Below, one piece after another: positions 4,267 to 27,236 of a DNA stretch of 64,000 nt; within the stretch, counting starts at the first letter, position 1; each line of letters starts with the position of its first letter. The DNA comes from a virus (Duplodnaviria; Caudoviricetes). A program made the translations under genes and the position numbers. The DNA is taken from IMG/VR virus record IMGVR_UViG_3300033067_001005, positions 1-64,000 of that record; one strand, given 5' to 3'. The notes beneath the pieces are model-generated. The model made no database searches, was not told the origin of the DNA, and was given only the letters and a program-made list of their open reading frames with translations.

Positions 4267-4518
4267 ATGTACAGGCCAGAAGACTTCCCCCACGGATTCA
4301 CTACCGCCGACTATCAGAAGCCAGGGCTAGTAATAGGAGAGCAAGACAAAATCTGTTCTAAAGAGTCACCGTGGACAGAGGAAAGGGAGAAAGCCACGAT
4401 TGACTACTGCGAGCGGAGAGGGCGACAATTGCCGACCGTCACGCACACAAACGTCCCTCACAGCAGAGAGAAAGGTTGGAGCCCATGCCCGTGGTGCGGG
4501 AAGAGAACAACAGGCTAG
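4267..4518 (+). CDS. Hypothetical protein
   Basis: ORF track; C-terminal CPWCG; reading frame in this area is ambiguous. Confidence 0.35.
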   Translation: MYRPEDFPHGFTTADYQKPGLVIGEQDKICSKESPWTEEREKATIDYCERRGRQLPTVTHTNVPHSREKGWSPCPWCGKRTTG

Positions 4519-5057: not shown

Positions 5058-5764
5058 ACAAGTTCGTAAGCGCCAGAAAAGCCATAGAGGAGCGCATACG
5101 CGCCCTCTCGGAAGAGTACGTAAGGCGTCCATTCAACAATGAGCTGTCAACCGCTCTGACTAGAGAGGCGAACACTGTCTTCTTTGATGAGTTGTATAAG
5201 AGAAACCTACTAGACCTGTTCAGACTGGAGATGTTGTCTATTGCGCCCAGAGGAGTTGAACCATTTCACGTGGTTGTAATGGGATTCGGAATCATAGAGC
5301 TAAGAGAAGCCAAAGTTGTAGCTGACTGGTTCTTGAAATACATGAGGGAGAGTGACATGACCGTAGGAAGAGCAGAGCCGCGCGCTGAAACTGCCCACAG
5401 AATCGCGATCCTGAAGGACCGCATTCCTGCGGCGGAAAAGGACATCGAGCAAGCCAAGAAGCTTCTGGATCAGGACAAGTTGCTTCTAAAGAAGCTGGAC
5501 CAGGAGGCCAACATTGACAAGGCGTGGTCCAAGGCCTGCAAAGCAGGCGTAGACCGCATGCTGCACAAGGCAGGGCAGCAACAGACTCCGTGGTTCCTAA
5601 ACGAAAGCACCTTCCACTACAGAAACGAGGTAAGCATCAGACTGAGGGAACTGGATAAGCTCCCCACGTTGGCGCCAGAGGCGCGGGCGAAAACGCTTCT
5701 AGACTGCATCAACTTCCTGGTGATGGCCTACGACATTGAGACGGCCCAGATGGAGAAGAAATGA
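5054..5764 (+). CDS. Hypothetical helical protein (start corrected from 4937)
   Basis: ATGA overlap at 5054; coiled-coil segment. Confidence 0.65.
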   Translation: MNKFVSARKAIEERIRALSEEYVRRPFNNELSTALTREANTVFFDELYKRNLLDLFRLEMLSIAPRGVEPFHVVVMGFGIIELREAKVVADWFLKYMRESDMTVGRAEPRAETAHRIAILKDRIPAAEKDIEQAKKLLDQDKLLLKKLDQEANIDKAWSKACKAGVDRMLHKAGQQQTPWFLNESTFHYRNEVSIRLRELDKLPTLAPEARAKTLLDCINFLVMAYDIETAQMEKK

Positions 5765-6123
5765 GTCTATTTCCTAGAAGGCAAGGCTCCACACGCCTTC
5801 TCGTGGAGGCCGCGGCAAGGGCTCTATCTGAAGGAAAGGTAGTGAACTTCGTCACAGCACATCGGGAGCAGGACCAGAACATCAGAGACAGTATTAGAAA
5901 GGAGCTTACGGGTCTGATCCCATCTGAAGAAACAGAAAAGACTCTAAAACGCCTGTTCTTCACTCATATGGACGGCAGTGACGCTTTCATGGGCGGCAGA
6001 GAGGGACCCACCCTAATCGACGTGTACGCTTTCGAGAAGGCCTACACAGAGAAGGTGGACGCCAAACAGGCTCTAATGACTATCAAGAAAGCACTAGAAG
6101 CAGTGCTAGAAAGACTACGCTAA
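5761..6123 (+). CDS. Hypothetical protein
   Basis: ORF track; coupled to both neighbours. Confidence 0.6.
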   Translation: MSLFPRRQGSTRLLVEAAARALSEGKVVNFVTAHREQDQNIRDSIRKELTGLIPSEETEKTLKRLFFTHMDGSDAFMGGREGPTLIDVYAFEKAYTEKVDAKQALMTIKKALEAVLERLR

Positions 6124-7034
6124 TGGAAACCATGCGAATCCTAGACCACGGGTACATGAAGCTCATTACCAGCTGGGGCACAGACGAGATGATCGTCGAG
6201 TCAGCTAGAATGAGCACCCAGAAGGGCTTCCTCGGCTGGGGCACAGGGAAGCAGAAGCACGTGTGCTGGGGCTGCAAGCAAACTCTAACTGATGAAGAGG
6301 TCACTAGAGATCCAGACATCAGTAACTTCTACCTGCATGACCACTCGCTGTTTGACAAGGATGCAAACTATTCAGGTGCTGCGCCTTCGCCAGACAGGCA
6401 TCCACAGATTAGAACAGAGGCGATCCTTCCAGGACTCTACGAGTGCGAAACCTTCGTAGAAACCGGAGATGAGAAGCTTCTTTCCTTCATGTGGAAGAAC
6501 GCGCACTCGACGCCTTTCGAGTTCGTGGGAGCTACGATTGAGGTGCAAGCACCCATCTTCGTCTTCCGCGAATGGCACAGGCACAGGATGCAGAGCTACA
6601 GCGAGGCTTCTGCCCGGTACTCTCCGCTTCCTGACTTCAACTACGTCCCAGAACTTGAGCGCGTTCTCATGGTGAATGAGACCAACGCCAACAAGCAGGC
6701 CGGCGCAATCAAGGGTGCTGATAAACTCAGCTCTCTAGACGCCGAAATCTTCAGAGAGGAGCTGCGGCAGCAGTACGTGAACGCCGAGGCCTTCTATCAG
6801 CGATGGCTAGGCAAGGGCGTGTCGAAGGAACTGGCAAGGCTGGCGCTTCCAGTAGGTAGATACTCCAAGATGAGAGCCTCTACTGACTTGCGAAACTGGT
6901 TGTCGTTTCTAACGCTGCGAACTGACAAGAATGCTCAATGGGAGATTCGCCAGTACGCTAATGCGATGCAGACAATCCTGACGGAGCTGTTCCCGAGAAC
7001 GCTGTCTCTCTGGTATGAGACGGCGAAGCGCTAG
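6123..7034 (+). CDS. thyX: Flavin-dependent thymidylate synthase ThyX carrying a ~75-aa insertion
   Basis: Signature RHRMQSYSEASARY; HSTPFE, ELARLALP, LRNWLSFLTLR and AQWEIR motifs. Confidence 0.95.
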   Translation: METMRILDHGYMKLITSWGTDEMIVESARMSTQKGFLGWGTGKQKHVCWGCKQTLTDEEVTRDPDISNFYLHDHSLFDKDANYSGAAPSPDRHPQIRTEAILPGLYECETFVETGDEKLLSFMWKNAHSTPFEFVGATIEVQAPIFVFREWHRHRMQSYSEASARYSPLPDFNYVPELERVLMVNETNANKQAGAIKGADKLSSLDAEIFREELRQQYVNAEAFYQRWLGKGVSKELARLALPVGRYSKMRASTDLRNWLSFLTLRTDKNAQWEIRQYANAMQTILTELFPRTLSLWYETAKR

Positions 7035-7944: not shown

Positions 7945-8015
7945 TCGGGCGTCGTTCAACGGCAGGACCGGGGATTTTGATTCCCCAGATTTAGGTTCGA
8001 CTCCTAGCGCCCGAA
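7945..8015 (+). tRNA. tRNA-Gln(TTG); CCA not encoded
   Basis: Acceptor stem TCGGGCG/CGCCCGA (U1-A72 as in Gln tRNAs); D-stem GTTC/GGAC; anticodon arm GGGGA-TTTTGAT-TCCCC; T-arm TTAGG-TTCGACT-CCTAG. Confidence 0.92.
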
Positions 8016-13081: not shown

Positions 13082-13324
13082 ATGAAGAAGTTCCTAGGTA
13101 CGTTCGACGGCGGTGGCGGCGGTGGCGGCGGTGGTGGCGGGGGCGCTGGCGCTACCCGTCCGACGGGTCGTCAGCCTGCTGGCCGTCCTACCGGCCGTCA
13201 GCCCGGCATCCTTCAGCGCATCGGCAACGGTATCGTCCGTGGCGCTGGCGCTGTCAGCCGGTTCGCTGGCCGTGTCGTCGGCTCCGCTCGTCGGGGCTTT
13301 GCGGCTGGCCAGGCCGCTCGCTAA
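13082..13324 (+). CDS. Small Gly/Arg-rich basic protein with N-terminal KKFLGTF-D tag
   Basis: Strong RBS AGAGGAG; poly-Gly, duplicated RPTGRQP, amphipathic Arg-rich C-terminus. Confidence 0.75.
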   Translation: MKKFLGTFDGGGGGGGGGGGGAGATRPTGRQPAGRPTGRQPGILQRIGNGIVRGAGAVSRFAGRVVGSARRGFAAGQAAR

Positions 13325-13395: not shown

Positions 13396-13755
13396 ATGAT
13401 CAAATGCAAGACCTCTAAAGACGGTGATTGGATCACCTTTAGCGTTAGCGGACACTCAGAAGACACGGGCGACGAAGAGCGCTTTCAAGTCTGTGCCGGA
13501 GTCTCTACGCTAGCTGTGGGCCTTCTAGCACTAACAACTAACGTCGGTAGCAGAGCCAAGCGACTACAGCACGCAGACGGCCACGTTCTAATCGACATCC
13601 CAGCATCCGATGAGGCAATGCTCTCGTCGTTGAAGTTCGTCAAGTACGCGCTAAGGGTGCTGTATTCTGGCTATAGCGAGCATCTAGAGCTTGATTTCGC
13701 AGACGACGTACCGGAGTACGCGCCTTGGCCGAGCCCAGATCCCACGTTGGCGTAG
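13396..13755 (+). CDS. prp: Prp-family (DUF464, ribosomal-processing) cysteine protease; probable virion maturation protease
   Basis: FSVSGH20...VC33AGVS matches the Prp His/Cys catalytic dyad motif GH-x(11-12)-VCAG.S; ~120 aa length and terminal helix-Y-x2-H-L pattern also fit. Confidence 0.8.
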   Translation: MIKCKTSKDGDWITFSVSGHSEDTGDEERFQVCAGVSTLAVGLLALTTNVGSRAKRLQHADGHVLIDIPASDEAMLSSLKFVKYALRVLYSGYSEHLELDFADDVPEYAPWPSPDPTLA

Positions 13756-15362
13756 CTGGTAGCTGCCCCCTAGATACGGAGAAGCTGACGGACCTAATCC
13801 TGGCGTTCGTCGTCCTCTTCAACGAGCCTATGGGGATCCACCTGTACAGGTATCAACGCCTGTTCATGCGTGAGATCATCCACAGCCTACTAGACCATAA
13901 CGGTGCGACGCTGACAGGGCTTTGGAGCCGGCAGAGCGGGAAGAGCGAGGCTCTTTCTAGTCTCGCGCCGGCTCTTTGTGTTTTCCTACCTGCCTTGGCT
14001 AAAGCCTTCCCCGGCGACCCAAGACTAACGGACTACACAGAGGGCTTCTGGGTAGGCATCTTCGCTCCGCGATTGGACCAGAGCGGAATCATCTACGGTC
14101 GTATTAGAAGCAAGGCGGAGAAGCCTAGCTCTCTAGCGCTGTACCAGGATAACGACATCGGGATTCAGCTCACGCAGAGCCGAGGAGACCAAGTCTCTTG
14201 GAGCAACGGGAGCTTCGTCGCGTCTCAAACTGCCAGCGAGCAGAGCAGCGTTGAGGGTAAGACCTATCACCTCGTGATTCTAGACGAGGCGCAGCTAATC
14301 AGCCGGACCAAGGTCAACAAAGAAATCGCCCCGATGTTGGCCGCTACCAACGGCCTAATGGTGAAGATTGGCACTGCCAGCTTCTATAAGGGCGGCTTTC
14401 ACGACTCCATCGTCTACAACCTGTCCTACGAGAAGAAGACAGGTAGGCGCTACCACTTCGAGTTCCCGTACGACGTCGTAATAGAAGAGAAGCGACGCAC
14501 GTACGAAGAGACGAAGAAGCCCTTCCACCTGAACTACGAAGCCTGGGTCTCTACTGAGCTAGCTAAGCTCGGCGGGAACAAAGACAACGAAGAGTTCAGG
14601 ATGAACTTCCGCCTGATGTGGTTCGAGGCCAACACGGGCGCGATCGACCGCGATGCCTTCTATGACGCGGCAATTGAGACTCTAGAGGCGAATCAACCCA
14701 CCTTTAGAGGAGACCTCGTTGCTGGTCTGGACTACGGAAAGAAGCACGACGCAACCATCCTGACGATCATGTCGGTCAATCCGAAGGAAATCGTCGACAC
14801 TAGGGCTATGATTCGTCCTGGCGACGACATCCCTGTCTACCACGAGAAGACCATCATCGCTTGGTTTGAGCTAGAGGGAAGGCGCTGGAAAGAGATCCAG
14901 GGCAAGGTCGTTGCCGCTCTCTCCGAATACGCCGTTCACACACTAGTAGCTGACTCAACTGGCGTGGGAGACCCACTAACAGAGCAGCTACAAGACCTGA
15001 TTCCCAGCATTAGAGTCATTCCGTTCGTTCTGTCAGCGCAGGGCAATGACCTGATGTACAAGCTCTATATCCAAGAGATGGAAGCGGGGCGTCTAAAGTA
15101 CGCTGCCGGACCAGACACAGCTGCAACGAAGGTCTATAAGAACTTCGTACACGAACATGAGCAGTTGCAAAAACTGCGGAACAACCTCTATATCAAGTGC
15201 TGTGCCCCGGAAGGGGAACACGACGACTACCCAGACTCGGCCGCACTTTGCTGCTATGCTGCAACGGTCCCTAGGGAATCGTTCATCGAACAGACTCAAA
15301 GCCCGTTCAAGTCGCGTCGTAGCAATGCTGCTGGGCGCTCTCGGTCAGATAGATACAGATAG
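13725..15362 (+). CDS. terL: Terminase large subunit
   Basis: Walker A SRQSGKS, Walker B LVILDEAQ, motif III IGTAS, nuclease AGLDYGKKHD and HDDYPDS; TTG start preceded by GGAG. Confidence 0.93.
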   Translation: MAEPRSHVGVAGSCPLDTEKLTDLILAFVVLFNEPMGIHLYRYQRLFMREIIHSLLDHNGATLTGLWSRQSGKSEALSSLAPALCVFLPALAKAFPGDPRLTDYTEGFWVGIFAPRLDQSGIIYGRIRSKAEKPSSLALYQDNDIGIQLTQSRGDQVSWSNGSFVASQTASEQSSVEGKTYHLVILDEAQLISRTKVNKEIAPMLAATNGLMVKIGTASFYKGGFHDSIVYNLSYEKKTGRRYHFEFPYDVVIEEKRRTYEETKKPFHLNYEAWVSTELAKLGGNKDNEEFRMNFRLMWFEANTGAIDRDAFYDAAIETLEANQPTFRGDLVAGLDYGKKHDATILTIMSVNPKEIVDTRAMIRPGDDIPVYHEKTIIAWFELEGRRWKEIQGKVVAALSEYAVHTLVADSTGVGDPLTEQLQDLIPSIRVIPFVLSAQGNDLMYKLYIQEMEAGRLKYAAGPDTAATKVYKNFVHEHEQLQKLRNNLYIKCCAPEGEHDDYPDSAALCCYAATVPRESFIEQTQSPFKSRRSNAAGRSRSDRYR

Positions 15363-16372: not shown

Positions 16373-16805
16373 CCGAAACCCCGTTTTCGTTCGCTATTTC
16401 GGCCAACTAGTCAGCCCGCGTCTGTATAGGCGCGGGTTTGGCTTTGTGGGCTTTCTCATCTGGCTCGTCGACCTACTGCGATTCTTTCTAGAGAGATGGC
16501 TGGTGTTCACCATCCTGAAGCTAGAGATGAGACGAGCAGGCGCTACGAGACGCGAGGTCCAAGAGGCCGTAGAACAAGCCAAGCTGGACGTGAGTACTGG
16601 CGGAAACGTCGCTACTACCGTTGGCCAGCCCAAAGAGCGCGGAGACCGCTACAAGCTAGGGCGGGCTGTAGAGCTGAGACCGACCCCAATCAGCTCTCAG
16701 AGTGACCTAGCCAAAACGATCGCCGCTGCTGCTGCTCCCAGGAGCAGAGAGCTACGCTACTTTAGAGGTAGACAACTTCTAATTCAGGAGGACAACAATG
16801 AATGA
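16332..16805 (+). CDS. Hypothetical membrane-associated protein (true start probably downstream, e.g. GTG 16446)
   Basis: Hydrophobic segment GFLIWLVDLLRFFLERWLVFTIL. Confidence 0.45.
   Translation: MMNESGPGLLRSRDRNPVFVRYFGQLVSPRLYRRGFGFVGFLIWLVDLLRFFLERWLVFTILKLEMRRAGATRREVQEAVEQAKLDVSTGGNVATTVGQPKERGDRYKLGRAVELRPTPISSQSDLAKTIAAAAAPRSRELRYFRGRQLLIQEDNNE
16413..16446 (+). terminator. Possible terminator hairpin
   Basis: AGCCCGCG-tctgtatagg-CGCGGGTT followed by T-rich bases. Confidence 0.4.
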
Positions 16806-16956
16806 AGTAGTGCCTACCCCGCCTCCGTCTAACGTCCCGACTTCACCGTCCGAGGACAAGCGGAAAAGCAATTACAAGAACGTACAGGTCGACTTCTCTG
16901 TCGGCACTGGGATGCAGCGCGGATTGCCCGTGCTGATCCCTAAGAAAGAGAAGTAA
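16798..16956 (+). CDS. Small hypothetical protein (52 aa), absent from the ORF track
   Basis: AGGAGG RBS; MNEVVPTPPPSNVPTSPSEDKRKSNYKNVQVDFSVGTGMQRGLPVLIPKKEK*; TAATG coupling to the next gene. Confidence 0.65.
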   Translation: MNEVVPTPPPSNVPTSPSEDKRKSNYKNVQVDFSVGTGMQRGLPVLIPKKEK

Positions 16957-17450
16957 TGACATCAGAGCTGCAATCAGCCCTGTCCTCAATAGGAGCCACC
17001 GTCGGCCTAATCACCTTCGTTCTGTTCGTTCTAGAGAAGTCTAAGAACAGCGGAAAGCAGGAGACCAAGCAAGAGAACTCGGTAGAAAAGGCCTCACTAG
17101 AGCGACAGATGGCTGACAACCTTCTGGAATCCAAGTTCCAAGCTTTAGGGCACGACCTGAAACTGGCTATTGCCACTTCGGATGTTCGTTCTGATGAGCG
17201 AGGAAAGAGGCTGCAAGAACAGGTAGTGGACATGCACAAGTCCATCGCCGCTTTGACTGCGGACATGTCCAACCAGGCAAAGGCGCAGATCATTACGGAT
17301 GAAAAGCTGTCTACGGTCACGAAGAAGCAGGACGAGACCGAAGCCCAGCTGGACAAGCTGTCTAATGAAGTGCAATCGCTCGGAAAGCAAATGTCCAAGA
17401 TAGAGAACAGACTGTCTGGGCATTACTCGAAAACAGATCCCAGCAAGTAA
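16956..17450 (+). CDS. Single-TM coiled-coil membrane protein
   Basis: N-terminal TM helix (IGATVGLITFVLFVL) and long heptad repeat. Confidence 0.65.
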   Translation: MTSELQSALSSIGATVGLITFVLFVLEKSKNSGKQETKQENSVEKASLERQMADNLLESKFQALGHDLKLAIATSDVRSDERGKRLQEQVVDMHKSIAALTADMSNQAKAQIITDEKLSTVTKKQDETEAQLDKLSNEVQSLGKQMSKIENRLSGHYSKTDPSK

Positions 17451-17460
17451 GGGGTAACTA

Positions 17461-19068
17461 ATGGCCGGCTCATCGATGCAGTTCTTGGCACTACAGGGCG
17501 GAAGCGGGACAGCAATCCCGTTTGCCAGAGAGACGGAGCCCAGTGCTATTGCCACCGTAGCTATGAGCCCCAAGGACTCGCAGCGTCTTCGGCGGTACGA
17601 GGAACACTGGCGCTTCTACCAGGGGCGACACTGGAACTTTGACCGTGAGGATGGCGAGCCTCTAGTTACCTCTAACTACTGTCGCGCAATCGTTCACAAG
17701 AAAGCTGCCTGGCTTGTAGGGAAGGGCATGGTGCTCGACACCCCGCAGGCCTTGCAGCACGTGACGAAGCCAAAGCTCGTAGAGACGTGGAAGTACAATA
17801 ACGAGCAGATTCTCCTGTGGAAGCTAGCCGTAACTGGCGGCGTCACTGGAGACTGCGTTGTACTGGTCACCGTGAAGGAACCGACGGGCGTAGAGCGCCG
17901 CTTCAACCCGAACACGGGCGGGCGCATCCACTTGCGGCTTGTAATGCCACACCAGTACTTCCCGCGCTACAACCCCCTCAATAACGAAGAGCTAATCGGC
18001 GTCCGCATCATTACTGAGGTGGATGCTCCCGCTCCCGTAGAGAGGGTGGGGATGCGTGGCACTGGCAGGACCGTCGTCCCTCGTAAGCGCCGCTACGTGG
18101 AAGACATCACGGCGGAGAAGATTGTAGAGGGGTACGAAGATGGGCAGATGACCGAGAAGCCGAACGTACTGGGAGAGATCCCCGTCGTTCACTGGGTCAA
18201 CCTACCGTTCCCCGGCGAAGTCTTCGGACAATCGGACCTAGACGGCGCAATCGACCTACAGCGTGAGCTGAACGAGAAGTTGACCGACCTCTCGGACATC
18301 ATCAACTATCACGCGGCGCCAATCACCATCGTGACGGGTGCAAAGGCTAAGGCACTAGAGAAGGACGCCCGCAACATGTGGACGGGCCTTCCTGCTGACG
18401 CCAAGGTGTACAACCTCGAGCTGGGAAGCTCCGGGGACACTAACTACAGGTACGTCGAGCTTGTGCGCAAGATGCTGCTAGAGCTTGCCAGCGTTCCTGA
18501 GGTAGCCCTGGGTGGCATCATCGCCATCTCCAATACGGCAGCCGCGGCACTAGAGGTGCAATTCCAGCCTCTGACGGAAGCCATCGACCAGAAGCGGCCG
18601 AACTATGAGCAGGGCCTAGAGCGCGTGAACTATCTGATTCTGCGCTGGTGGCAGACCATGGAGAAGTTCAACCTCCCCGTCGACCTCTGTAAGGAATGCG
18701 GCGGAAGGATTCTGACCTTCCAGGTCAAGACCAAGGATGGCAAGCAGCGCACGATGCGCAAATGCTACCTAATCGACCCGCAGACTCTAGAGTTCATGGA
18801 GCCTGACGATGTCCGCGTTAACGTAAAGCGCGAATACTCGTTCGGCACCGAGACTCGGATGATGCCCTACGGCCAGGTAAAGAAGGAGTTCTTGCAGCGC
18901 TCCGCCTCCTACTGGGACCCCATGCCCAGAATCGATAAGGTCGAAGAGGAGCAAAGCAAGCTAGACATGGCGGAGCAGAAGAAGGAAGAAGCCGCTAAAG
19001 AGCAAATTGCGGCAGCTGGTTATGACCCTGAGCAGCTGGCGGCTGCGGAGAAGCCAGGAGAAGAATAA
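17461..19068 (+). CDS. Portal protein, N-terminal part (SPP1 gp6-like), ending inside a Cys-containing insertion
   Basis: RLRRYEEHWRFYQG, NYCRAIVHKKAAWLVGKG, LGEIPVVHWVN, GQSDL..AIDLQRELN..LTD..DIINYHAAP, SGAALEVQFQPL-like motif; position after terL. Confidence 0.88.
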   Translation: MAGSSMQFLALQGGSGTAIPFARETEPSAIATVAMSPKDSQRLRRYEEHWRFYQGRHWNFDREDGEPLVTSNYCRAIVHKKAAWLVGKGMVLDTPQALQHVTKPKLVETWKYNNEQILLWKLAVTGGVTGDCVVLVTVKEPTGVERRFNPNTGGRIHLRLVMPHQYFPRYNPLNNEELIGVRIITEVDAPAPVERVGMRGTGRTVVPRKRRYVEDITAEKIVEGYEDGQMTEKPNVLGEIPVVHWVNLPFPGEVFGQSDLDGAIDLQRELNEKLTDLSDIINYHAAPITIVTGAKAKALEKDARNMWTGLPADAKVYNLELGSSGDTNYRYVELVRKMLLELASVPEVALGGIIAISNTAAAALEVQFQPLTEAIDQKRPNYEQGLERVNYLILRWWQTMEKFNLPVDLCKECGGRILTFQVKTKDGKQRTMRKCYLIDPQTLEFMEPDDVRVNVKREYSFGTETRMMPYGQVKKEFLQRSASYWDPMPRIDKVEEEQSKLDMAEQKKEEAAKEQIAAAGYDPEQLAAAEKPGEE

Positions 19069-19466
19069 TGGGAATCTTCGCTAGTATCGCAGCCAAGCTA
19101 GGCCTAGGCGGCTCAGGAAACGCTGCTACACCAAAGGGCGTTACTGTCGGCGCTAGAGGCGGGAAGTACTACCTAGATGCTAACGGCAAAAAGGTGTACG
19201 GAGACCCTACCAAGGTGAAAGCCAAGGCCGCCGCGGCGCAGAAAGAGGCCCTACCAAGCAAACAGAAGGACAAGGCCGACGCGCACACGACCAAGGCTTT
19301 CGCTGCCTCTAGTAAGGCAAAGGACGCCGCTTCGCACAAGGCAGCTGCTGACGCGCACAAGATCGCAGCGGAGCATCACAGCAAGATAAACACTAAGTAC
19401 TCCAAGATGAAGGCCAAGCACCACAGAGAGATGGTGGCCGAGCACAGCAAGAAAGCGAAGGGCTAG
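19068..19466 (+). CDS. Lys/Ala/His-rich basic protein with GARGGKYYLDANGKKVYG motif
   Basis: AGGAG RBS and TAATG coupling; paralog of 19471..20079. Confidence 0.75.
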   Translation: MGIFASIAAKLGLGGSGNAATPKGVTVGARGGKYYLDANGKKVYGDPTKVKAKAAAAQKEALPSKQKDKADAHTTKAFAASSKAKDAASHKAAADAHKIAAEHHSKINTKYSKMKAKHHREMVAEHSKKAKG

Positions 19467-19470
19467 AACC

Positions 19471-20079
19471 ATGGGCGTGTACGGAAAGCTCGCAGAAAAG
19501 TTAGGCGTCAGTGGTGGAGGCTCTAAAGGAACCCAGACTGGGCCCCGAGGCGGAAGATACTATCTGGATGCCAGCGGGAAGAAGGTTTATGGAGAGCCAC
19601 CCAAAGGCTCTTCTGGTTCTAAGGCCAAGAACAAGGCAGCTGACGACCCCGTAGCCATGGCTAAGAAGTTTAGTAGTCAGGCTCATTCCGCTTCCTCCGC
19701 TGCATACGATCCTAATTCCCACCATATGGCAGGAAAGGCACATCTTCTAGCTGCACACCTACAAGGCAAAGCGGGTGACAAGGCAGCTCAGGCCAAGCAC
19801 CTAGATGCAGCCGAGGCACATGGCGACAAGTCTGCTGCTAATCTTCCAGCTGGCTACGTAAGCCAAATCAAAGCTGAAGCAGTAATGGCTAAAGCTGAAT
19901 TGACCGGCAAGAAGATGAAGGGCTCCGGTGACATCATCACTAAGGGAGCCATGTCTGGGCATCTTTACCACGGAGAGTTGGAAGGAAAGCATGTCTACTC
20001 TCGCTCTCTGGAGGGGGGACGTGGCATGGGCCATACAGCTGACTCCGCCTACAAGTTTTCCGATAAGAAGGTCCACTAA
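19471..20079 (+). CDS. Lys/Ala/Gly-rich basic protein with GPRGGRYYLDASGKKVYG motif
   Basis: Paralog of 19068..19466 (shared N-terminus and motif). Confidence 0.75.
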   Translation: MGVYGKLAEKLGVSGGGSKGTQTGPRGGRYYLDASGKKVYGEPPKGSSGSKAKNKAADDPVAMAKKFSSQAHSASSAAYDPNSHHMAGKAHLLAAHLQGKAGDKAAQAKHLDAAEAHGDKSAANLPAGYVSQIKAEAVMAKAELTGKKMKGSGDIITKGAMSGHLYHGELEGKHVYSRSLEGGRGMGHTADSAYKFSDKKVH

Positions 20080-20723
20080 TGGCACTCTTTCTAATTCCAA
20101 GCGTCTCAAAGCTCCTCGGGGCAAAGGACAAGCCCAAGGGCGAGACACCCGAGCCTGAGACCGGGGAAGCTAATGCAAAGCCCGGTCAGCTCGTTGCCCA
20201 CGACATCGACATCCCGGAGGAGCCGGAAGAGGTCAACGCCGTCGTTCAGGAATGGGACAACGAGAAGAACCAGTTCGTCGAGCGCAACCTAGGCAAGCGT
20301 CTTCTCGTGCCAACAGGCTGCGAAAGGCCCACGTACTTTTCCCCGTTCGAGAACTCGGTTACGCTGAAGAGCGCCCTACCGCGTGACAAGGAAAAGGACA
20401 CTAACCTGTACCAAGCCTGGCAGACTAATGGCTGGGTAAGCAGACACTGGGTCATGAGCCGTCTAGAAGAGGGCATCTCTATCTCGCAGATGGACAAGGA
20501 AATCGCGGACGATATCCCGTTCATTCTCTCTATTCAGGGAAAGCCTGACCCCTCTGGCCAGGTTGCCCAGACAAACGGACTTCAACAGCCCGGTGACGGG
20601 CCTGGCGACAACAACGGAGCGCCGCTACCCCCCGGACCAGGCCCTGGCCGCGGGAACAAGTTCGCTCCTGGCGATGGCCTAGCAAAGGCCCCACCCAACG
20701 CTTCACCGGGAAGGAAGATGTGA
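20079..20723 (+). CDS. Probable portal protein C-terminal part
   Basis: NSVTLKSALPRDKEKD...NGWVSRHWVMSRL...QMDKEIADD resembles the V.F...LP.D...G..S.......L...E.++I..E tail of SPP1-like portals, which is missing from 17461..19068; ends in a Pro/Gly disordered tail. Confidence 0.65.
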   Translation: MALFLIPSVSKLLGAKDKPKGETPEPETGEANAKPGQLVAHDIDIPEEPEEVNAVVQEWDNEKNQFVERNLGKRLLVPTGCERPTYFSPFENSVTLKSALPRDKEKDTNLYQAWQTNGWVSRHWVMSRLEEGISISQMDKEIADDIPFILSIQGKPDPSGQVAQTNGLQQPGDGPGDNNGAPLPPGPGPGRGNKFAPGDGLAKAPPNASPGRKM

Positions 20724-20724
20724 G

Positions 20725-21738
20725 ATGAAACTGACACTGCTAAAGAAGACCGGAGTCGTCGATGACCCCGATCCGCGTACCACGCCGCCCACTAGAATCT
20801 TCCCTGTCTCTCCACAGTATGACGACGCCAAGCTGACGCCGGCCAAGTCCATTCACTGCATCTTCGTCGTTCTGAACGGGACGGCAGACGCGGCGAGCGG
20901 ACTAGTAACGGCGCAGCTGTTCGTGAAGGGCGAGATTGCCCAAGGCGTTCTCTCCCCCGCTGGCGGAGCTACTTCGGAGACTAGATGGGTGCCTGTTGGC
21001 TCTCCCAAGACTGTCTCCAATAACGAGCTAGTCACCTTCCGTCTGCCTCCGGCGGCGGACAAAGACGACTGCTTCATGAGGCTAACCAGCATCTCTGGTA
21101 CGTCTGCAACCGACGTTGCGATGTACTGGGCGCCTGGCGGGGAGATGGAAGCGGACCTCGGCCTGGGTAGTGCCACTGGCGCTATTGCCACGCTGAACTC
21201 TGCTATCCAGGCTCTAATGCTAGCACAGTACAACGCTACCAGACCTGTCCTAGCTGACAGAATTGCCAGCATTGCACAAGCAAACCAGCGTGGCGACATC
21301 ACCGTAATGGAGCAGTATCTTCCCTCAGCGGAAGACTCTGCTAACGGTGGTTTCCACACGTTCGAGCGAGCAATCGCAGATGTACTGGGAGCCTGGACCG
21401 GATATCACTCTGGCACCACCAAGGTGGGCACGGCAGGAATCAACGTCAAAGCCGCTGTAGGAAGAGTCAGGCAGCTTAGAGGCGTAAACACCTCTACTAC
21501 TGTCGATTACTACTTGGTACTCGTTGACAAGGCGACTGCGCCTATCAACGGAGATGCTGTGGTAGACGCTATTGCTCTTCCCAGATCAGCCGCTGGCGTT
21601 GCCGTGAACGAGAAGCATAGAGACTATCCTGGTGGTAAGAAGATGACCGCAGGCTTCTCTTACGCCATCTCTACTACGCCGCACACAGTCACCTTGGCTG
21701 CCGCTTTGGATTGTTCTGTTGGCGCCGAATACGCCTGA
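20725..21738 (+). CDS. Putative head decoration/structural protein (paralog of 25015..25758)
   Basis: GRVRQLRGVNTSTTVDYYLVLVDKATAP resembles GRIQMVRATNTDVATQYLFIWDYTAP. Confidence 0.55.
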   Translation: MKLTLLKKTGVVDDPDPRTTPPTRIFPVSPQYDDAKLTPAKSIHCIFVVLNGTADAASGLVTAQLFVKGEIAQGVLSPAGGATSETRWVPVGSPKTVSNNELVTFRLPPAADKDDCFMRLTSISGTSATDVAMYWAPGGEMEADLGLGSATGAIATLNSAIQALMLAQYNATRPVLADRIASIAQANQRGDITVMEQYLPSAEDSANGGFHTFERAIADVLGAWTGYHSGTTKVGTAGINVKAAVGRVRQLRGVNTSTTVDYYLVLVDKATAPINGDAVVDAIALPRSAAGVAVNEKHRDYPGGKKMTAGFSYAISTTPHTVTLAAALDCSVGAEYA

Positions 21739-21749
21739 TAGGAGCTGAA

Positions 21750-22115
21750 ATGCGCTACGAAGTCCTTGTAAAGAAGTGGGATGAGAAGAAGGCTTTCACC
21801 CCTGTAATCGAGGTCAGCGACCCCACAGGCGAATGGAAGTCCGGGCGGATCGAAGGCCTGCGCTTGGAGCAACCAGACTCGCTAGACGAGCTGAAGATCC
21901 ACCAGTGGTTGGCTGACTATGCCATGAAACACCAAGCTATCGCGGCGGCGGCACTAGCGGCCAAGGACCCTAAGCCCAAGGTGAAGCGTGGCCTAATCGA
22001 CGCTACCAAGACTGACAAGGCTCGCAAGGTTGCTGAGGGCAAGACAGGCTCAATCGCTGACGACGCAGACGACGCAGACCCGTTCACGGCTAACATGCTA
22101 GCACTAGGAAAGTAG
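21750..22115 (+). CDS. Hypothetical protein (start corrected from 21711)
   Basis: GGAG RBS before ATG 21750. Confidence 0.65.
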   Translation: MRYEVLVKKWDEKKAFTPVIEVSDPTGEWKSGRIEGLRLEQPDSLDELKIHQWLADYAMKHQAIAAAALAAKDPKPKVKRGLIDATKTDKARKVAEGKTGSIADDADDADPFTANMLALGK

Positions 22116-22123
22116 GAGTCACT

Positions 22124-25018
22124 ATGCCCGCCCAGAACCTGATTCCTAACTCCGAAAACGTGTCGGCGTGGGGAATTCTGACGAATGTTGCTGCTGCACT
22201 AGCCTTGGCTGTCGCTGGTCCGGATGGCGCACTGGGCGGAGTGTCTCTTGTTACAGCCAATGGGGGCGGCGGAGCACTAAACCACTTCGCTGAGATGGCT
22301 AATGCGCAGATGCCCTACTTTGCGCAAGGTCTAGGATCGGCAGCTTTCCAGCTGAACGCAGGCAGAGAGCGTGTCTCTGGAGCGTGGATCAAGGCTGGGA
22401 CGACCACTAAGGTCGTTGTGGGCAACGGGCGACACACGAACTGGTATCGTGCGCTATTCAACCTGTCTAACGGCACCGTGGACACGGAAGAGAACTGCCG
22501 CGCGTACATCGAGCCGGGAGAAAACGGCTGGTACTACTGTTGCGTCGTCTATATCGTGCAACCCCTAGAGGCCAACGTTCAGCAGGACTCCGTAGTAGTT
22601 GCTCCTGTGCCAGCGGCACAGACGGGAACAGCCAGCATCGCCTACAATCACGCTAGCGAGTCCTGCTACGCCTTTGGAGCAACGCTAGCTCTGACCAACG
22701 GTCCTCCTCCGTACCAGAAGACCACGACGCAGACCAATGAGGCTCGTGCTCCTAGAGCACGTAACACTAGACAGAACAACATCCGTTGGTCTGAGAACCC
22801 GAGTAATGCTGTCTGGACGAAGTATGCTGCCTCTTGTGCAGCTTCAGCTGTGAACTCCCCACTAGGGGGCCTGGCGGAAGCAATCATTGAGGACGGCACT
22901 CTAGGATTCCACGGTGTGTCTCAGGGCGGAACTGCGGACAAAGGCATCTATACGATTACTGCGCTAGTAAAGGCAGGGACTCGTTCTTGGTGCCTTCTAG
23001 CTACAGCTGGGACAGGTGTAGGCGCTTACTTTGACCTGACTCTAGGTGTAACTGGCTCCATCTTCGGCTCACCGCTAGCAGCTTCGATAGAGCCGGCAGG
23101 AGACGGGTGGTGGTGGATCAGCGTAACCCACGCTATCCCAGCAGCTATTAGAGCTTTGGAGCTTTATGCAGCTACGGGTAATGCGGCGGCCAACTACACA
23201 GGCACTAACGGAAACACAGCACTCTACGTAGCGGGAATGTCTCTTGCGCAAAGCTGGGGTCCGCCTGACCACGTGAAGACCACCGTTGCCGTGATCAATC
23301 CAAAGATTGGTGTTAGAGGCAGAGCCAGGCAGAACTTGACTCCTGCCAGCGAGGACTTCACGGCCGGCTTTGCCTGGTTCAAAGAGAGCGGAGCTATTAC
23401 TGTCACTGCTGACGTGGTAGCTGGACCTGATGGAGCCCTGACGAAGGCCGATCGTATCCAGTGGACATCAGGAATCCTGCGATACGTTGGCCAGAACATC
23501 AACTTCACTAGAGGTCCTTACACAGTCTCTGTGTGGCTGCGTTCAGCAACAGGTGGAACTCAGTTGGTAAGGCTGCGGCTTCCCCTCATTCCTGGCACCT
23601 CTAACCAGGACAGTCCTGTGTTGACCTTGACGCCAGACTGGCAGCGCTTCTCTTTCTCTGTGGAGATACAGTCGTCCAACGTCACTCTGTCCACTGTGCT
23701 CATAGAGAGCGACGCTGGGCTAAGTGCCGCAGACTTCTACGCTTGGGGCTTCCAGCTCACCCAAACGGCGAGAGAAACGCAGTACGTGAAGTCGACCACG
23801 CAGGCGGTGCTCGGTCGCGCTCCGCGCTCGCTCATGGGCAAGCAGAACCTCCTGCTTTCGTCGCAGGGGATGCACAGCGACGCGGTCAACTGGTTCCCAA
23901 CGCTTGTTACTCGGTCTGCGTCCCCAGCGCTGGCACCCGATGGAACGGCCACAGTCTCGCGCATCGAGGACACGGACCCAGCAAACTACGGCTACATCCG
24001 CCAGCAGATCAGCATCCCGCCGGGCGTGCGCAGCTATTGCTTTAGCATCTACCTGCGCAAGACGGCGACGTCTGCGGTCTGCGGATGGAACTACCTGGCG
24101 GTAGGGGGAACCACCCAGCCCGGAAGCATGCGTGTCGCGCCAGCCACGGGCGCCTGGTCGTCTGGCGGCACTCCTGGTGGCGTGGAGGATTGCGGCGACT
24201 ACTGGCGCGTCTGGAACGTGGTCCGAAACCAGGGGTCTAGTGCGCTGCGCGTCGACTTTTATGTGGCGACGGGGACGAGCTTCAACGGCGGCGACAACGC
24301 CGCGGGCGTCGGCTGGGTCGACGTGTGGGGAGCGCAGTGGACGGAGGGCGAGGGTCCCACCGAGTACGTCGCAACGACGACCGCGGTCGTGAACACCGGA
24401 GCTCCGCGCCGTCGCGCTCCACGCCAGAACGTCGGCGCGAACAGCGACATGCTGAGCGGAGCGTGGAGCATTGCGAATGCGACCCGCTCCGCTGGGCCGG
24501 CAGGACCAACAGGAAAGACTGGCATTCTAGTACTGGAAGATGGCAGCGCAGCAGCAGTCCACTATATCACGCAGACTGTAACCTCGCTTGGTACAGGTCG
24601 CCTTGCTACTCTAACGTTCTATGCGAAGCGTGCTACGGCAGGATCTCGTCAGTGGATTGCTTGCGCTGGAAACGGCGGAAACTCTGCACTATGGTTCGAC
24701 CTGATAAACTTCAAACGAGGCACAGGCGGCGGAGGCTGTGTAGCTTCAACGATAGAGCAGGTAGAAGGCGGCTACGCAAAGATCAGCATTTCGTGGATCC
24801 AAACAGCCGGACTAGAGGGAGTACGTATCTACATGGCTGACGCTGACGGCAGCGTTACCTTCAATGGAGACAGCGGAGCCTCTGGAGGCATCTACGTCTT
24901 TGAGGCACAAGTAACTGAGGGCTACGGACCTCCGCCTGAGCAAGTGAGTACCAGGAATACTCCTGTGGGCTCTCAAGCGCAGGAATACGACAGAGGGCCA
25001 AGAGGCCTCTACGCATGA
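22124..25018 (+). CDS. Head-spike/fibre-like protein with five tandem ~190-aa CBM-like jelly-roll modules
   Basis: Each module begins QN[LN]...S[EQD]...W and ends [AW]G.Q[LWV]...GP..Y..TT. Confidence 0.7.
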   Translation: MPAQNLIPNSENVSAWGILTNVAAALALAVAGPDGALGGVSLVTANGGGGALNHFAEMANAQMPYFAQGLGSAAFQLNAGRERVSGAWIKAGTTTKVVVGNGRHTNWYRALFNLSNGTVDTEENCRAYIEPGENGWYYCCVVYIVQPLEANVQQDSVVVAPVPAAQTGTASIAYNHASESCYAFGATLALTNGPPPYQKTTTQTNEARAPRARNTRQNNIRWSENPSNAVWTKYAASCAASAVNSPLGGLAEAIIEDGTLGFHGVSQGGTADKGIYTITALVKAGTRSWCLLATAGTGVGAYFDLTLGVTGSIFGSPLAASIEPAGDGWWWISVTHAIPAAIRALELYAATGNAAANYTGTNGNTALYVAGMSLAQSWGPPDHVKTTVAVINPKIGVRGRARQNLTPASEDFTAGFAWFKESGAITVTADVVAGPDGALTKADRIQWTSGILRYVGQNINFTRGPYTVSVWLRSATGGTQLVRLRLPLIPGTSNQDSPVLTLTPDWQRFSFSVEIQSSNVTLSTVLIESDAGLSAADFYAWGFQLTQTARETQYVKSTTQAVLGRAPRSLMGKQNLLLSSQGMHSDAVNWFPTLVTRSASPALAPDGTATVSRIEDTDPANYGYIRQQISIPPGVRSYCFSIYLRKTATSAVCGWNYLAVGGTTQPGSMRVAPATGAWSSGGTPGGVEDCGDYWRVWNVVRNQGSSALRVDFYVATGTSFNGGDNAAGVGWVDVWGAQWTEGEGPTEYVATTTAVVNTGAPRRRAPRQNVGANSDMLSGAWSIANATRSAGPAGPTGKTGILVLEDGSAAAVHYITQTVTSLGTGRLATLTFYAKRATAGSRQWIACAGNGGNSALWFDLINFKRGTGGGGCVASTIEQVEGGYAKISISWIQTAGLEGVRIYMADADGSVTFNGDSGASGGIYVFEAQVTEGYGPPPEQVSTRNTPVGSQAQEYDRGPRGLYA

Positions 25019-26126: not shown

Positions 26127-27236
26127 ATGAGAAACCTTCGTAAGAAGTTCCTGGGGACGTTCGATGAAAAGGCGGCTCCTGCCGCTGGTGAGCAAGGGGC
26201 GCCTGGGGGACAACCTCCGGCGCCTTCTGCGCCTGTAGACATTCAAGCCATCGCTAGTGCGGCAGCTGCGGCAGCTTCGGCTCAGACCGTAGAGAGGCTT
26301 CGCAAGTCGGCTGAAGATGAGGCCGCGGAAGAGGCTAGAGCGGCAGAGGAAGCTCGGCTCGCGGAAGAGGCCAGCCAGTCTCTAGAGGCTCACCGTCGCC
26401 ACACCGATAGACAGGTAGAGGCGATTCGTGCGGAGCTTATGGCTACACAGGCTGCTCTAAAGGCCTCGCAGCTTCAGACCTATAAGACGGAGCGGATCTC
26501 TCAGGTGAGAGCGGCCGGCGTAGGTATCGTCGTAGAACTCGTCACTGGGAACAGTGAGGCGGAGATCGAGCAGTCGATTCAGCACGCTGCTAATGTGTAC
26601 GCCACCTACCAGAAGCAGATCATGGCCGCGCAGACTCCGGCAGTACCTGCCGCCGCGGCTGCTCCGGGGATTCCCCAAGCAGTAGTGCCCCCTCCCCCGG
26701 CAGCTGCCCCGCCTGCACCGGGGACGCTCACTCCCAGCGCTCCCACGGCGGAGAACGCCCAAGTGTTTGACGCCGAGACCCTTGCCTACCTAACCTCCCC
26801 CGAGGCGGCAAGAAACGGCGATTACCAGAAGTACCGCCCTCTAATTCATGCCCAGCTTCAGAGCAAGTTCTCTGGAGGCACTCCTACCTCTAATGTTCGT
26901 TCTACTTTGCAGCACCCCCAGGTACTGGCTCAGCGAGGAGCACCCGGCACGCCGGCCCCTCCGATGCCTGTTCAGAGAGGGGATATGCCAGGCGGCGTGA
27001 GAGTACCTATCGTTCAGGTAGGCCCGCCCCCGATGAACGCGCAGCCGCAACCAGGGACTAATCCCCGCTTCGGTGCGCCTCCCGCAGCTCAGGGCGCCCC
27101 ACAGCCCGCAGAGCTGGATGCAGCATACAATCGGGGTCTAGTACCAACGCTGGACCTGGAAGCCATTCGAGCCCGAGCACAAGCGGCTGCTGACAAGTAC
27201 CGCCCTGCTCCTGCTCAACCCGTAGTGACTAACTGA
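26127..27236 (+). CDS. Capsid scaffolding protein with N-terminal KKFLGTF-D tag
   Basis: Directly upstream of the major capsid gene; coiled coil plus Pro/Ala-rich disordered regions. Confidence 0.8.
   Translation: MRNLRKKFLGTFDEKAAPAAGEQGAPGGQPPAPSAPVDIQAIASAAAAAASAQTVERLRKSAEDEAAEEARAAEEARLAEEASQSLEAHRRHTDRQVEAIRAELMATQAALKASQLQTYKTERISQVRAAGVGIVVELVTGNSEAEIEQSIQHAANVYATYQKQIMAAQTPAVPAAAAAPGIPQAVVPPPPAAAPPAPGTLTPSAPTAENAQVFDAETLAYLTSPEAARNGDYQKYRPLIHAQLQSKFSGGTPTSNVRSTLQHPQVLAQRGAPGTPAPPMPVQRGDMPGGVRVPIVQVGPPPMNAQPQPGTNPRFGAPPAAQGAPQPAELDAAYNRGLVPTLDLEAIRARAQAAADKYRPAPAQPVVTN

Follow-up and report, generated by a model that had tools for sequence, protein, structure and literature searches.

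The portal is the ring through which DNA enters and leaves the phage capsid; it also nucleates the assembly of the capsid, and serves the packaging motor as docking point and sensor. To our knowledge, it is made of a single chain in every phage studied. Here we describe a stretch of viral DNA of 64,000 nucleotides (positions 1 to 64,000 of the IMG/VR record IMGVR_UViG_3300033067_001005, Caudoviricetes; hereafter the window) in which the portal is encoded as two fragments by separate open reading frames (ORFs), ORF1 and ORF4, with two further genes, ORF2 and ORF3, lying between them. The portals closest to it are those of the SPP1 gp6 type (PF05133; SPP1 7z4w/2jes, 80alpha/SaPI1 8v8b/8vd8, Bxb1 9d94, phiCD508 9gb3), with which it shares the fold and the place of the gene after that of the large terminase (TerL). 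The clade described here adds an insertion of approximately 220 residues, and the gene is cut in the linker of this insertion in the window and in about ten relatives. All the solved portals matched and all the annotated portal genes retrieved in this analysis were single-gene products, and no split portal gene was described in the full-text literature searched. The related passages found there dealt with other interrupted genes: inteins and introns in terminases, and a polymerase that is split.

The closest precedent in mechanism is the nrdA "genes in pieces" of Aeromonas phage Aeh1. Crona et al. 2011 (PMC3045599) describe an essential gene present as two separately translated pieces with another gene between them (nrdA-a/mobE/nrdA-b); there, the proteins assemble with one another to regain function, no RNA or protein splicing being involved, and the break carries new tail sequences. 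Two separately translated fragments of an essential protein, with new tails at the break, are also found here. However, the Aeh1 gene was reportedly split by a mobile homing endonuclease, whereas the intervening genes of the window have no endonuclease features and are absent from several split relatives. Moreover, reassembly was shown biochemically for Aeh1, while for the portal we propose it. Intein-interrupted phage genes offer a second comparison. In both cases an essential morphogenesis gene is interrupted, and one relative of the window (L009, see below) is an example, but the window displays no intein motifs and contains two ORFs with their own translation starts.

Portal homology of ORF1 and ORF4

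The phage is uncultured, and its 75.5-kb record is estimated to be 83% complete. The long ORFs of the window lie on the + strand throughout. TerL is encoded at 13725-15362, upstream of the portal block, and the portal gene thus stands downstream of TerL in the packaging module. The four ORFs of the block, which an earlier note on this DNA had delimited from the letters alone, were recovered with the same coordinates (Table 1).

ORF1 matched the SPP1_portal family (PF05133) at 69.1 bits (cut-off 25.5), over profile positions 7-350 of 416 only, and phrog_64 over positions 82-432 of 547 (E 1.2e-29). The nearest annotated portals, from Streptomyces phages GiJojo and BRock and Bacillus phage BCD7, matched ORF1 residues 33-405 only, and the GiJojo portal showed 35% identity to residues 41-388. 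When the ORF1 family was compared with seven canonical portals using hhalign, ORF1 residues 36-401 aligned with GiJojo 33-388 (E 2.5e-74) and the match then ended; the tail, residues 402-535, gave no match to the same portals (E 0.75). These results agree with the earlier reading of ORF1 as an SPP1 gp6-like portal that ends early. A scan of the phage's own record with PF05133 recovered the portal N-part at 68.7 bits and no second portal; the record holds one portal N-part and one C-part only.

The missing end was found in ORF4. A phmmer search with ORF4 against 1.84 billion representatives returned 51 relatives. About 20 of these were 570-1067 aa long (mostly 670-750) and were matched by ORF4 at their extreme C-terminus, and about 20 others were stand-alone proteins of 180-290 aa. 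With hhalign, the ORF4 family aligned with GiJojo 384-459 (E 3.8e-05), starting where the ORF1 match stops (388), and the aligned stretch takes in the V-x-[FW]-x-S-x-LP-x-D strand and the helices after it; the reversed-sequence control gave an E value of 0.62. The C-terminal portal motif noticed in ORF4 at first sight is thus real. With BLASTP, ORF4 matched neither the GiJojo nor the BCD7 portal; the similarity was detected by profile-profile comparison alone. Neither ORF4 nor any of the 21 C-fragments matched a Pfam or PHROG family, so that annotation pipelines will call such a locus a truncated portal followed by a hypothetical protein. A tblastn search with ORF4 against 50,697 phage records also gave no match, and therefore no cultured relative carries this C-fragment.

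Uninterrupted relatives, which the earlier note had proposed to look for, do exist. Homologues of 710-753 aa span ORF1 and ORF4 end to end. In P0006 (752 aa), residues 3-516 correspond to ORF1 (51% identity) and residues 557-751 to ORF4 (52%, E 3e-58). The fused portal L003 (753 aa) is 50% identical to ORF1, and its residues 571-753 are 60% identical to ORF4; in the tblastn register, ORF4 residue n is L003 residue n+538.

L003 was modelled with AlphaFold2 from a 20-sequence alignment (mean predicted local distance difference test, pLDDT, 70.9; predicted template modelling score 0.64). The model was confident at residues 30-470 and 588-690, and pLDDT fell below 50 at 472-491, 531-581 and 691-753. 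Compared with solved portals, it aligned from residue 28 to residues 677-692, over 350-400 residues, with Z scores of 25-27. The best matches were SaPI1 8vd8 (Z 27.2) and SPP1 gp6 7z4w_A (Z 26.1; root-mean-square deviation 3.8 over 376 residues, model residues 28..677), followed by phiCD508 (Z 25.1) and Bxb1 (Z 25.0). By sequence, the fused-portal profile matched the phiCD508 portal only among PDB entries, weakly and without covering the C-terminus. Through this fused proxy, ORF1 and ORF4 together account for the complete portal fold, that is clip, stem, wing and crown. ORF1 alone ends at the long helix (372-403 in the L003 model), while the last strand and the crown helices map to ORF4. Indeed, the register places strands at ORF4 residues 50-59 and 66-76, C81 after them, the wing strand at 93-96 and helices at 104-117, 122-128 and 135-152. 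ORF4 93-152 corresponds to strand 631-634 and helices 642-655, 660-666 and 673-690 of L003, within the stretch aligned to solved portals.

Position of the break and its recurrence in relatives

The clade-specific insertion follows the long helix and precedes the last wing strand; it consists of a Cys4 beta-domain and a disordered charged linker of 40-50 residues. ORF1 ends at about L003 residue 541, and the break therefore falls inside the disordered linker (531-581, pLDDT below 50), as anticipated by the earlier proposal of a cut in a flexible charged loop. The alignment of ORF1 with P0006 stops at residue 520 within the charged tail; this fused protein contains nothing equivalent to ORF1 residues 521-535 or ORF4 residues 1-14.

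Both halves of the insertion domain are conserved on their own sides of the break. Four cysteines are invariant in 20 fused portals (C413, C416, C446 and C619 in L003), and their equivalents in the window are C410, C413 and C435 of ORF1 and C81 of ORF4. The same positions are retained throughout the alignment of N-fragments (8 sequences: the window, two other split N-fragments and five fused N-parts) and in 21 of 21 stand-alone C-fragments. In the N-half, the corresponding L003 strands (419-447) had a pLDDT of 85-90. In the C-half, P46, E48, P49, P78, C81, P84 and P89 (ORF4 numbering) are invariant in the 21 C-fragments; in L003 they fall on strands 588-597 and 604-614 and on C619 (pLDDT 75-92). 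The conserved cysteines probably form a predicted Cys4 metal site that bridges the halves, three being provided by ORF1 and one by ORF4. At their far end, the portals of this clade, fused or split, also share a conserved Pro/Gly-rich sequence (NNGAPLPPGPGPGRGN.x.PGD).

The same cut was seen in independent IMG/VR, JGI, ENA and Logan assemblies of different samples, in at least nine contigs besides the window. The number of genes between the fragments varied: none in L005 (561 + 258 aa), L021 (544 + 262 aa, with a 4-nt overlap), L023 and L025 (550 + 274 aa, with a 106-nt spacer); one in L006 (288 aa), L020 (376 aa), the P0013 contig (313 aa) and probably L033; and two in the window. Intact portals were found in L003, L004, L007, L010, L038-L058 and others. 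The N-cores and C-cores of split relatives were about equally conserved with respect to the window (48-60% and 44-63% identity, respectively), and in all the relatives mapped the C-fragment gene lay within the portal locus. A ribosome-binding site, GGAG or GAAGG, was found 8-10 nt before the start codon of every C-fragment. Most of these starts overlap the stop of the gene before them (TAATG, ATGA or similar), whereas in L025 and L026 there is a short gap. The arrangement at the start of ORF4, TAATG with a ribosome-binding site, was also found at the C-fragment starts of L005, L006 and L024.

Sampling of IMG/VR with the N-fragment yielded approximately 24 fused and 3 split loci of this portal family. 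A metagenome scan added few loci, and no prophage relatives were found in a scan of genome contigs. In a tree of 32 portal N-cores, all the split forms and five fused forms fell into one subclade (Shimodaira-Hasegawa-like approximate likelihood ratio support 99). The free tree contained three changes between the fused and split states; a tree holding the split forms together was 7.9 log-likelihood units better, with a p value of 0.69 in the approximately unbiased (AU) test. A single old fission is compatible with these data. Multiple independent fissions were considered, since the free tree needs three changes, but the AU test does not reject one origin and we do not claim them.

A different kind of interruption was observed elsewhere in this portal family. 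The fused portal of L009 (IMGVR_UViG_3300002307_002251) contains a canonical LAGLIDADG intein at 5141-6139, and others were found in L017, L059 and P0038. The L009 intein starts with CVDEETEILT, carries TPNHRW and LLELLIDADG, and ends with YWTGN|S; it was missed by Pfam. Its insertion site, NYHA|SPVT, is equivalent to approximately residue 286 of ORF1. The N-part of the L009 portal also displays an apparent in-frame stop near 4334-4336, for which a sequencing error, an alternative start or recoding are possible.

Table 1. Features of the portal block in the window
Feature	Position	Strand	Size or basis
ORF1, portal N-fragment: canonical core, first half of insertion domain, charged tail	17461..19068	+	535 aa, frame 1; PF05133, phrog_64, hhalign
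Canonical portal core, ORF1 36-401, with long helix ...NYLILRWWQTME at its end	17566..18663	+	hhalign match limits
N-half of clade-specific insertion domain, ORF1 402-490	18664..18930	+	C410, C413, C435 invariant; no canonical-portal match
Charged acidic tail, ORF1 491-535	18931..19065	+	homologous to first part of linker of fused portals
TAATG stop/start overlap, ORF1/ORF2	19066..19070	+	read from sequence
ORF2, short basic adaptor-module member: leader, Gly spacer, GARGGKYYLDANGKKVYGDP, Lys/Ala/His-rich helical tail	19068..19466	+	132 aa, frame 3
ORF3, adaptor-module family member	19471..20079	+	202 aa, frame 1; N-terminal module matches genes of L006, L020, L025 (E 1e-4 to 1e-7)
TAATG stop/start overlap, ORF3/ORF4, preceded by ribosome-binding site AAGAAGG	20076..20081	+	
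ORF4, portal C-fragment	20079..20723	+	214 aa, frame 3; phmmer to fused portal C-termini; identity to P0006, L003
ORF4 N-terminus, residues 1-32, new or hypervariable, leader MALFLIPSVSKLLGAK	20079..20174	+	L003 alignment from residue 33
C-half of insertion domain, ORF4 40-92: HDIDIPEEPE, two strands, C81 (VPTGCERP)	20196..20354	+	
Canonical portal end, ORF4 93-152: last wing strand (SVTL, then SALPRD), three crown helices	20355..20534	+	
Pro/Gly-rich disordered C-terminal tail of ORF4 (NNGAPLPPGPGPGRGN...)	20535..20720	+	conserved motif; L003 691-753 pLDDT <50

Genes between the portal fragments and N-terminal leaders

ORF2 and ORF3 are paralogues with 43-55% identity at their N-terminus, where they share a module of approximately 45 residues made of a leader, a Gly-rich spacer and the motif TGPRGG-x-[YF]Y...G-x-K-VYG-x-PP. 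Their tails are basic, rich in Lys, Ala and His, and have no recognisable domain. ORF2 matched no Pfam or PHROG family, and apart from the matches of its N-terminal module the homologue search with ORF3 returned ORF3 itself only. In Pfam and PHROGs, no HNH, GIY-YIG or LAGLIDADG match was obtained for either protein. The PBCV-specific basic adaptor domain (PF08789) has the same short basic motif, G-x-RGG-x-YY...GKK-x-Y, and like ORF2 and ORF3 is followed by variable C-terminal parts. However, ORF3 scored 15.1 bits against this family, below the cut-off of 20.4 (E 0.026), which does not establish membership, and ORF2 gave no match.

The adaptor module was found in several positions around the portal gene of relatives. 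It heads the inserted genes of L006 (5871-6737) and L020 (515-1645), whose C-terminal parts contain an HExxH domain with sub-threshold similarity to PF07737, an ATLF-like metallopeptidase family (E 2.5e-05 and 1.6e-04). It also heads the gene after the N-fragment in L033 (6134-6478), the gene directly after the C-fragment in L025 (4556-5839) and the second gene after the intact portal in L055 (7122-8504); the ORF2 module recurs in the L020 and L033 genes. Adaptor-module genes are thus a regular family of portal neighbours with a variable C-terminus, and not foreign cargo; ORF2 and ORF3 are short members of it. As a guess from gene position, the ORF2 and ORF3 products may be associated with the portal and possibly packaged.

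The earlier note had described the intervening genes as unrelated and had attributed the split to their insertion. The first description is not supported, since the same family adjoins an intact portal in L055 and a C-fragment in L025. Nor is insertion supported as the cause of the split, because the position of the module relative to the C-fragment varies and L005, L021, L023 and L025 are split with nothing between the fragments; moreover, the tree allows one split clade. Fission may have come before or after the placement of these genes, and local rearrangement of a regular neighbour gene is as likely as insertion.

The intervening genes have their own start coupling, as was first remarked from the letters: besides the TAATG overlap of ORF1 and ORF2, ORF2 and ORF3 are separated by 4 nt. 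No promoter-like site and no convincing + strand terminator was found within 16800-22200, which is consistent with one transcript. Elsewhere in the window, the sole Rfam match was one tRNA gene (7945-8015, 52.1 bits).

A Prp-type cysteine protease is encoded at 13396-13755 (PF04327, E 5.6e-08). The N-terminus of the scaffold protein of the window (MRNLRKKFLGTF-D) and that of a Gly-rich micro-protein (MKKFLGTF-DGGG) display a common tag, K-K-F-L-G-T-F followed by an acidic residue, and the same tag starts the C-fragments of L021 (MRGLSRFLGTF-E) and L023 (MTADKKFLSIF-A). The corresponding loci are 13082-13324 and 26127-26165 in the window, L021:6001-6040 and L023:988-1025. ORF4 (MALFLIPSVSKLLGAK-D), ORF2 and ORF3 carry a looser K-L-G/L leader only. 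The likeness between the N-terminus of ORF4 and those of ORF2 and ORF3, which had been pointed out from the start, is visible as an amphipathic leader with a K-L-G/L core, but it is weak, with 4 identities over approximately 16 residues. The putative Prp-type leader of C-fragments should be regarded as a lead and not as a result.

A proposed two-chain portal and its alternatives

The best reading of these observations, and one that we consider likely on the basis of sequence and of the model of a fused relative, is a portal built of two chains, ORF1 and ORF4. The portal of the window is spread over two genes, as first proposed: the fused P0006 and L003 contain both parts, simple readthrough is excluded by the frames (1 and 3), and no sign of splicing was seen. 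Whereas each subunit of an SPP1 gp6-like portal is one polypeptide, the window has two ORFs that are read in different frames and start independently. ORF1 would provide the clip, the stem, most of the wing, the long tunnel-side helix and the first half of the insertion domain; the second half of this domain would come from ORF4, together with the last strand of the wing and the helices of the crown. Without a covalent bond, the two chains would rejoin as they complete the insertion domain that they share, probably around the Cys4 site, and the ORF4 strand would dock into the wing sheet. The four genes are apparently co-transcribed and translationally coupled through the TAATG overlaps, and this coupling may keep both halves and the two adaptor-module proteins in step.

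Several points weigh against this reading. The hhalign probability of the ORF4 match to the canonical C-terminus was 71% only. AlphaFold of ORF1 alone, from the 8-sequence alignment, gave a mean pLDDT of 55.7, which was too poor, and this model was not used. A second portal gene could sit in the missing part of the record, which is 83% complete. Finally, the binding of the two chains is a prediction.

The split might also be put to use. A stepwise assembly could be imagined in which a ring of N-fragments forms and the crown subunit is delivered separately (with a Prp-cleavable, scaffold-like leader in some relatives), the adaptor-module proteins, some of them with HExxH peptidase-like domains, being portal- or crown-bound cargo loaded at the same step, and the inter-chain Cys4 metal site acting as a lock. 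Taken as a whole, this scenario is doubtful.

Somewhat less probable still is that ORF1 alone forms a working ring without a crown, the C-fragment having left the portal fold to act as a head protein of its own, for instance a free internal or scaffold-like one. The C-fragments of relatives do carry varied N-terminal extensions, among them small helical domains and leaders of the Prp type that resemble the scaffold's, and the two genes can lie up to 1 kb apart. However, the strand and crown helices of ORF4 are the canonical, conserved end of a portal, and the C-fragment is always encoded in the portal locus. Moreover, the retention of the cysteine and of the PEEP and VPTGC motifs in 21 of 21 stand-alone forms is sensible only if pairing with the ORF1 half persists.

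It is very improbable that the halves are joined into one chain after transcription or translation, whether through an intron, through a split intein or through translational bypass. Introns and inteins often interrupt structural and packaging genes of phages, and L009 shows that an intein can reside in this very portal family, at another site. In the window, however, Rfam at gathering thresholds detected no intron, and the 1010-nt gap between ORF1 and ORF4 is entirely coding, being filled by two conserved genes with spacers of 0-4 nt. No Hint or intein Pfam match was found in ORF1, ORF4 or the fused portals, the residues beside the break are kept in the mature fused proteins, and the C-fragments have no conserved terminal Asn or +1 nucleophile (PFENS, PYETE, PYETK, PHCNK). 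An Atlas structure search with the ORF1 tail found no intein-like neighbour, but all TM-scores were below 0.5 and the search was uninformative. A split intein had been considered as a candidate because a Cys opens the insertion and the portal sequence restarts behind ...FEN|S; it was rejected, as conserved intein residues are missing and these segments are part of the mature fused proteins.

Finally, it is hardly credible, even for an incomplete, metagenome-assembled viral contig, that the split arose in assembly or sequencing, or that the phage is defective and its portal gene decaying. The same break is found in at least nine other contigs assembled independently from different samples by different pipelines, the restart signals are well formed, and both halves are intact ORFs conserved across relatives (44-63% identity), a state that would not last in the absence of selection.

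A two-chain portal would mean that a portal can receive its crown and last wing strand in trans. The linker within the insertion domain would then be a permissive site at which the chain can be cut or extended, which may be useful for portal engineering, display and nanopore work. The adaptor-module family and the Prp-tagged C-fragments offer leads on cargo that may be loaded at the portal vertex. Altogether, the portal would join the short list of essential phage machines (ribonucleotide reductase, terminase and polymerases) that survive gene fission by protein reassembly.

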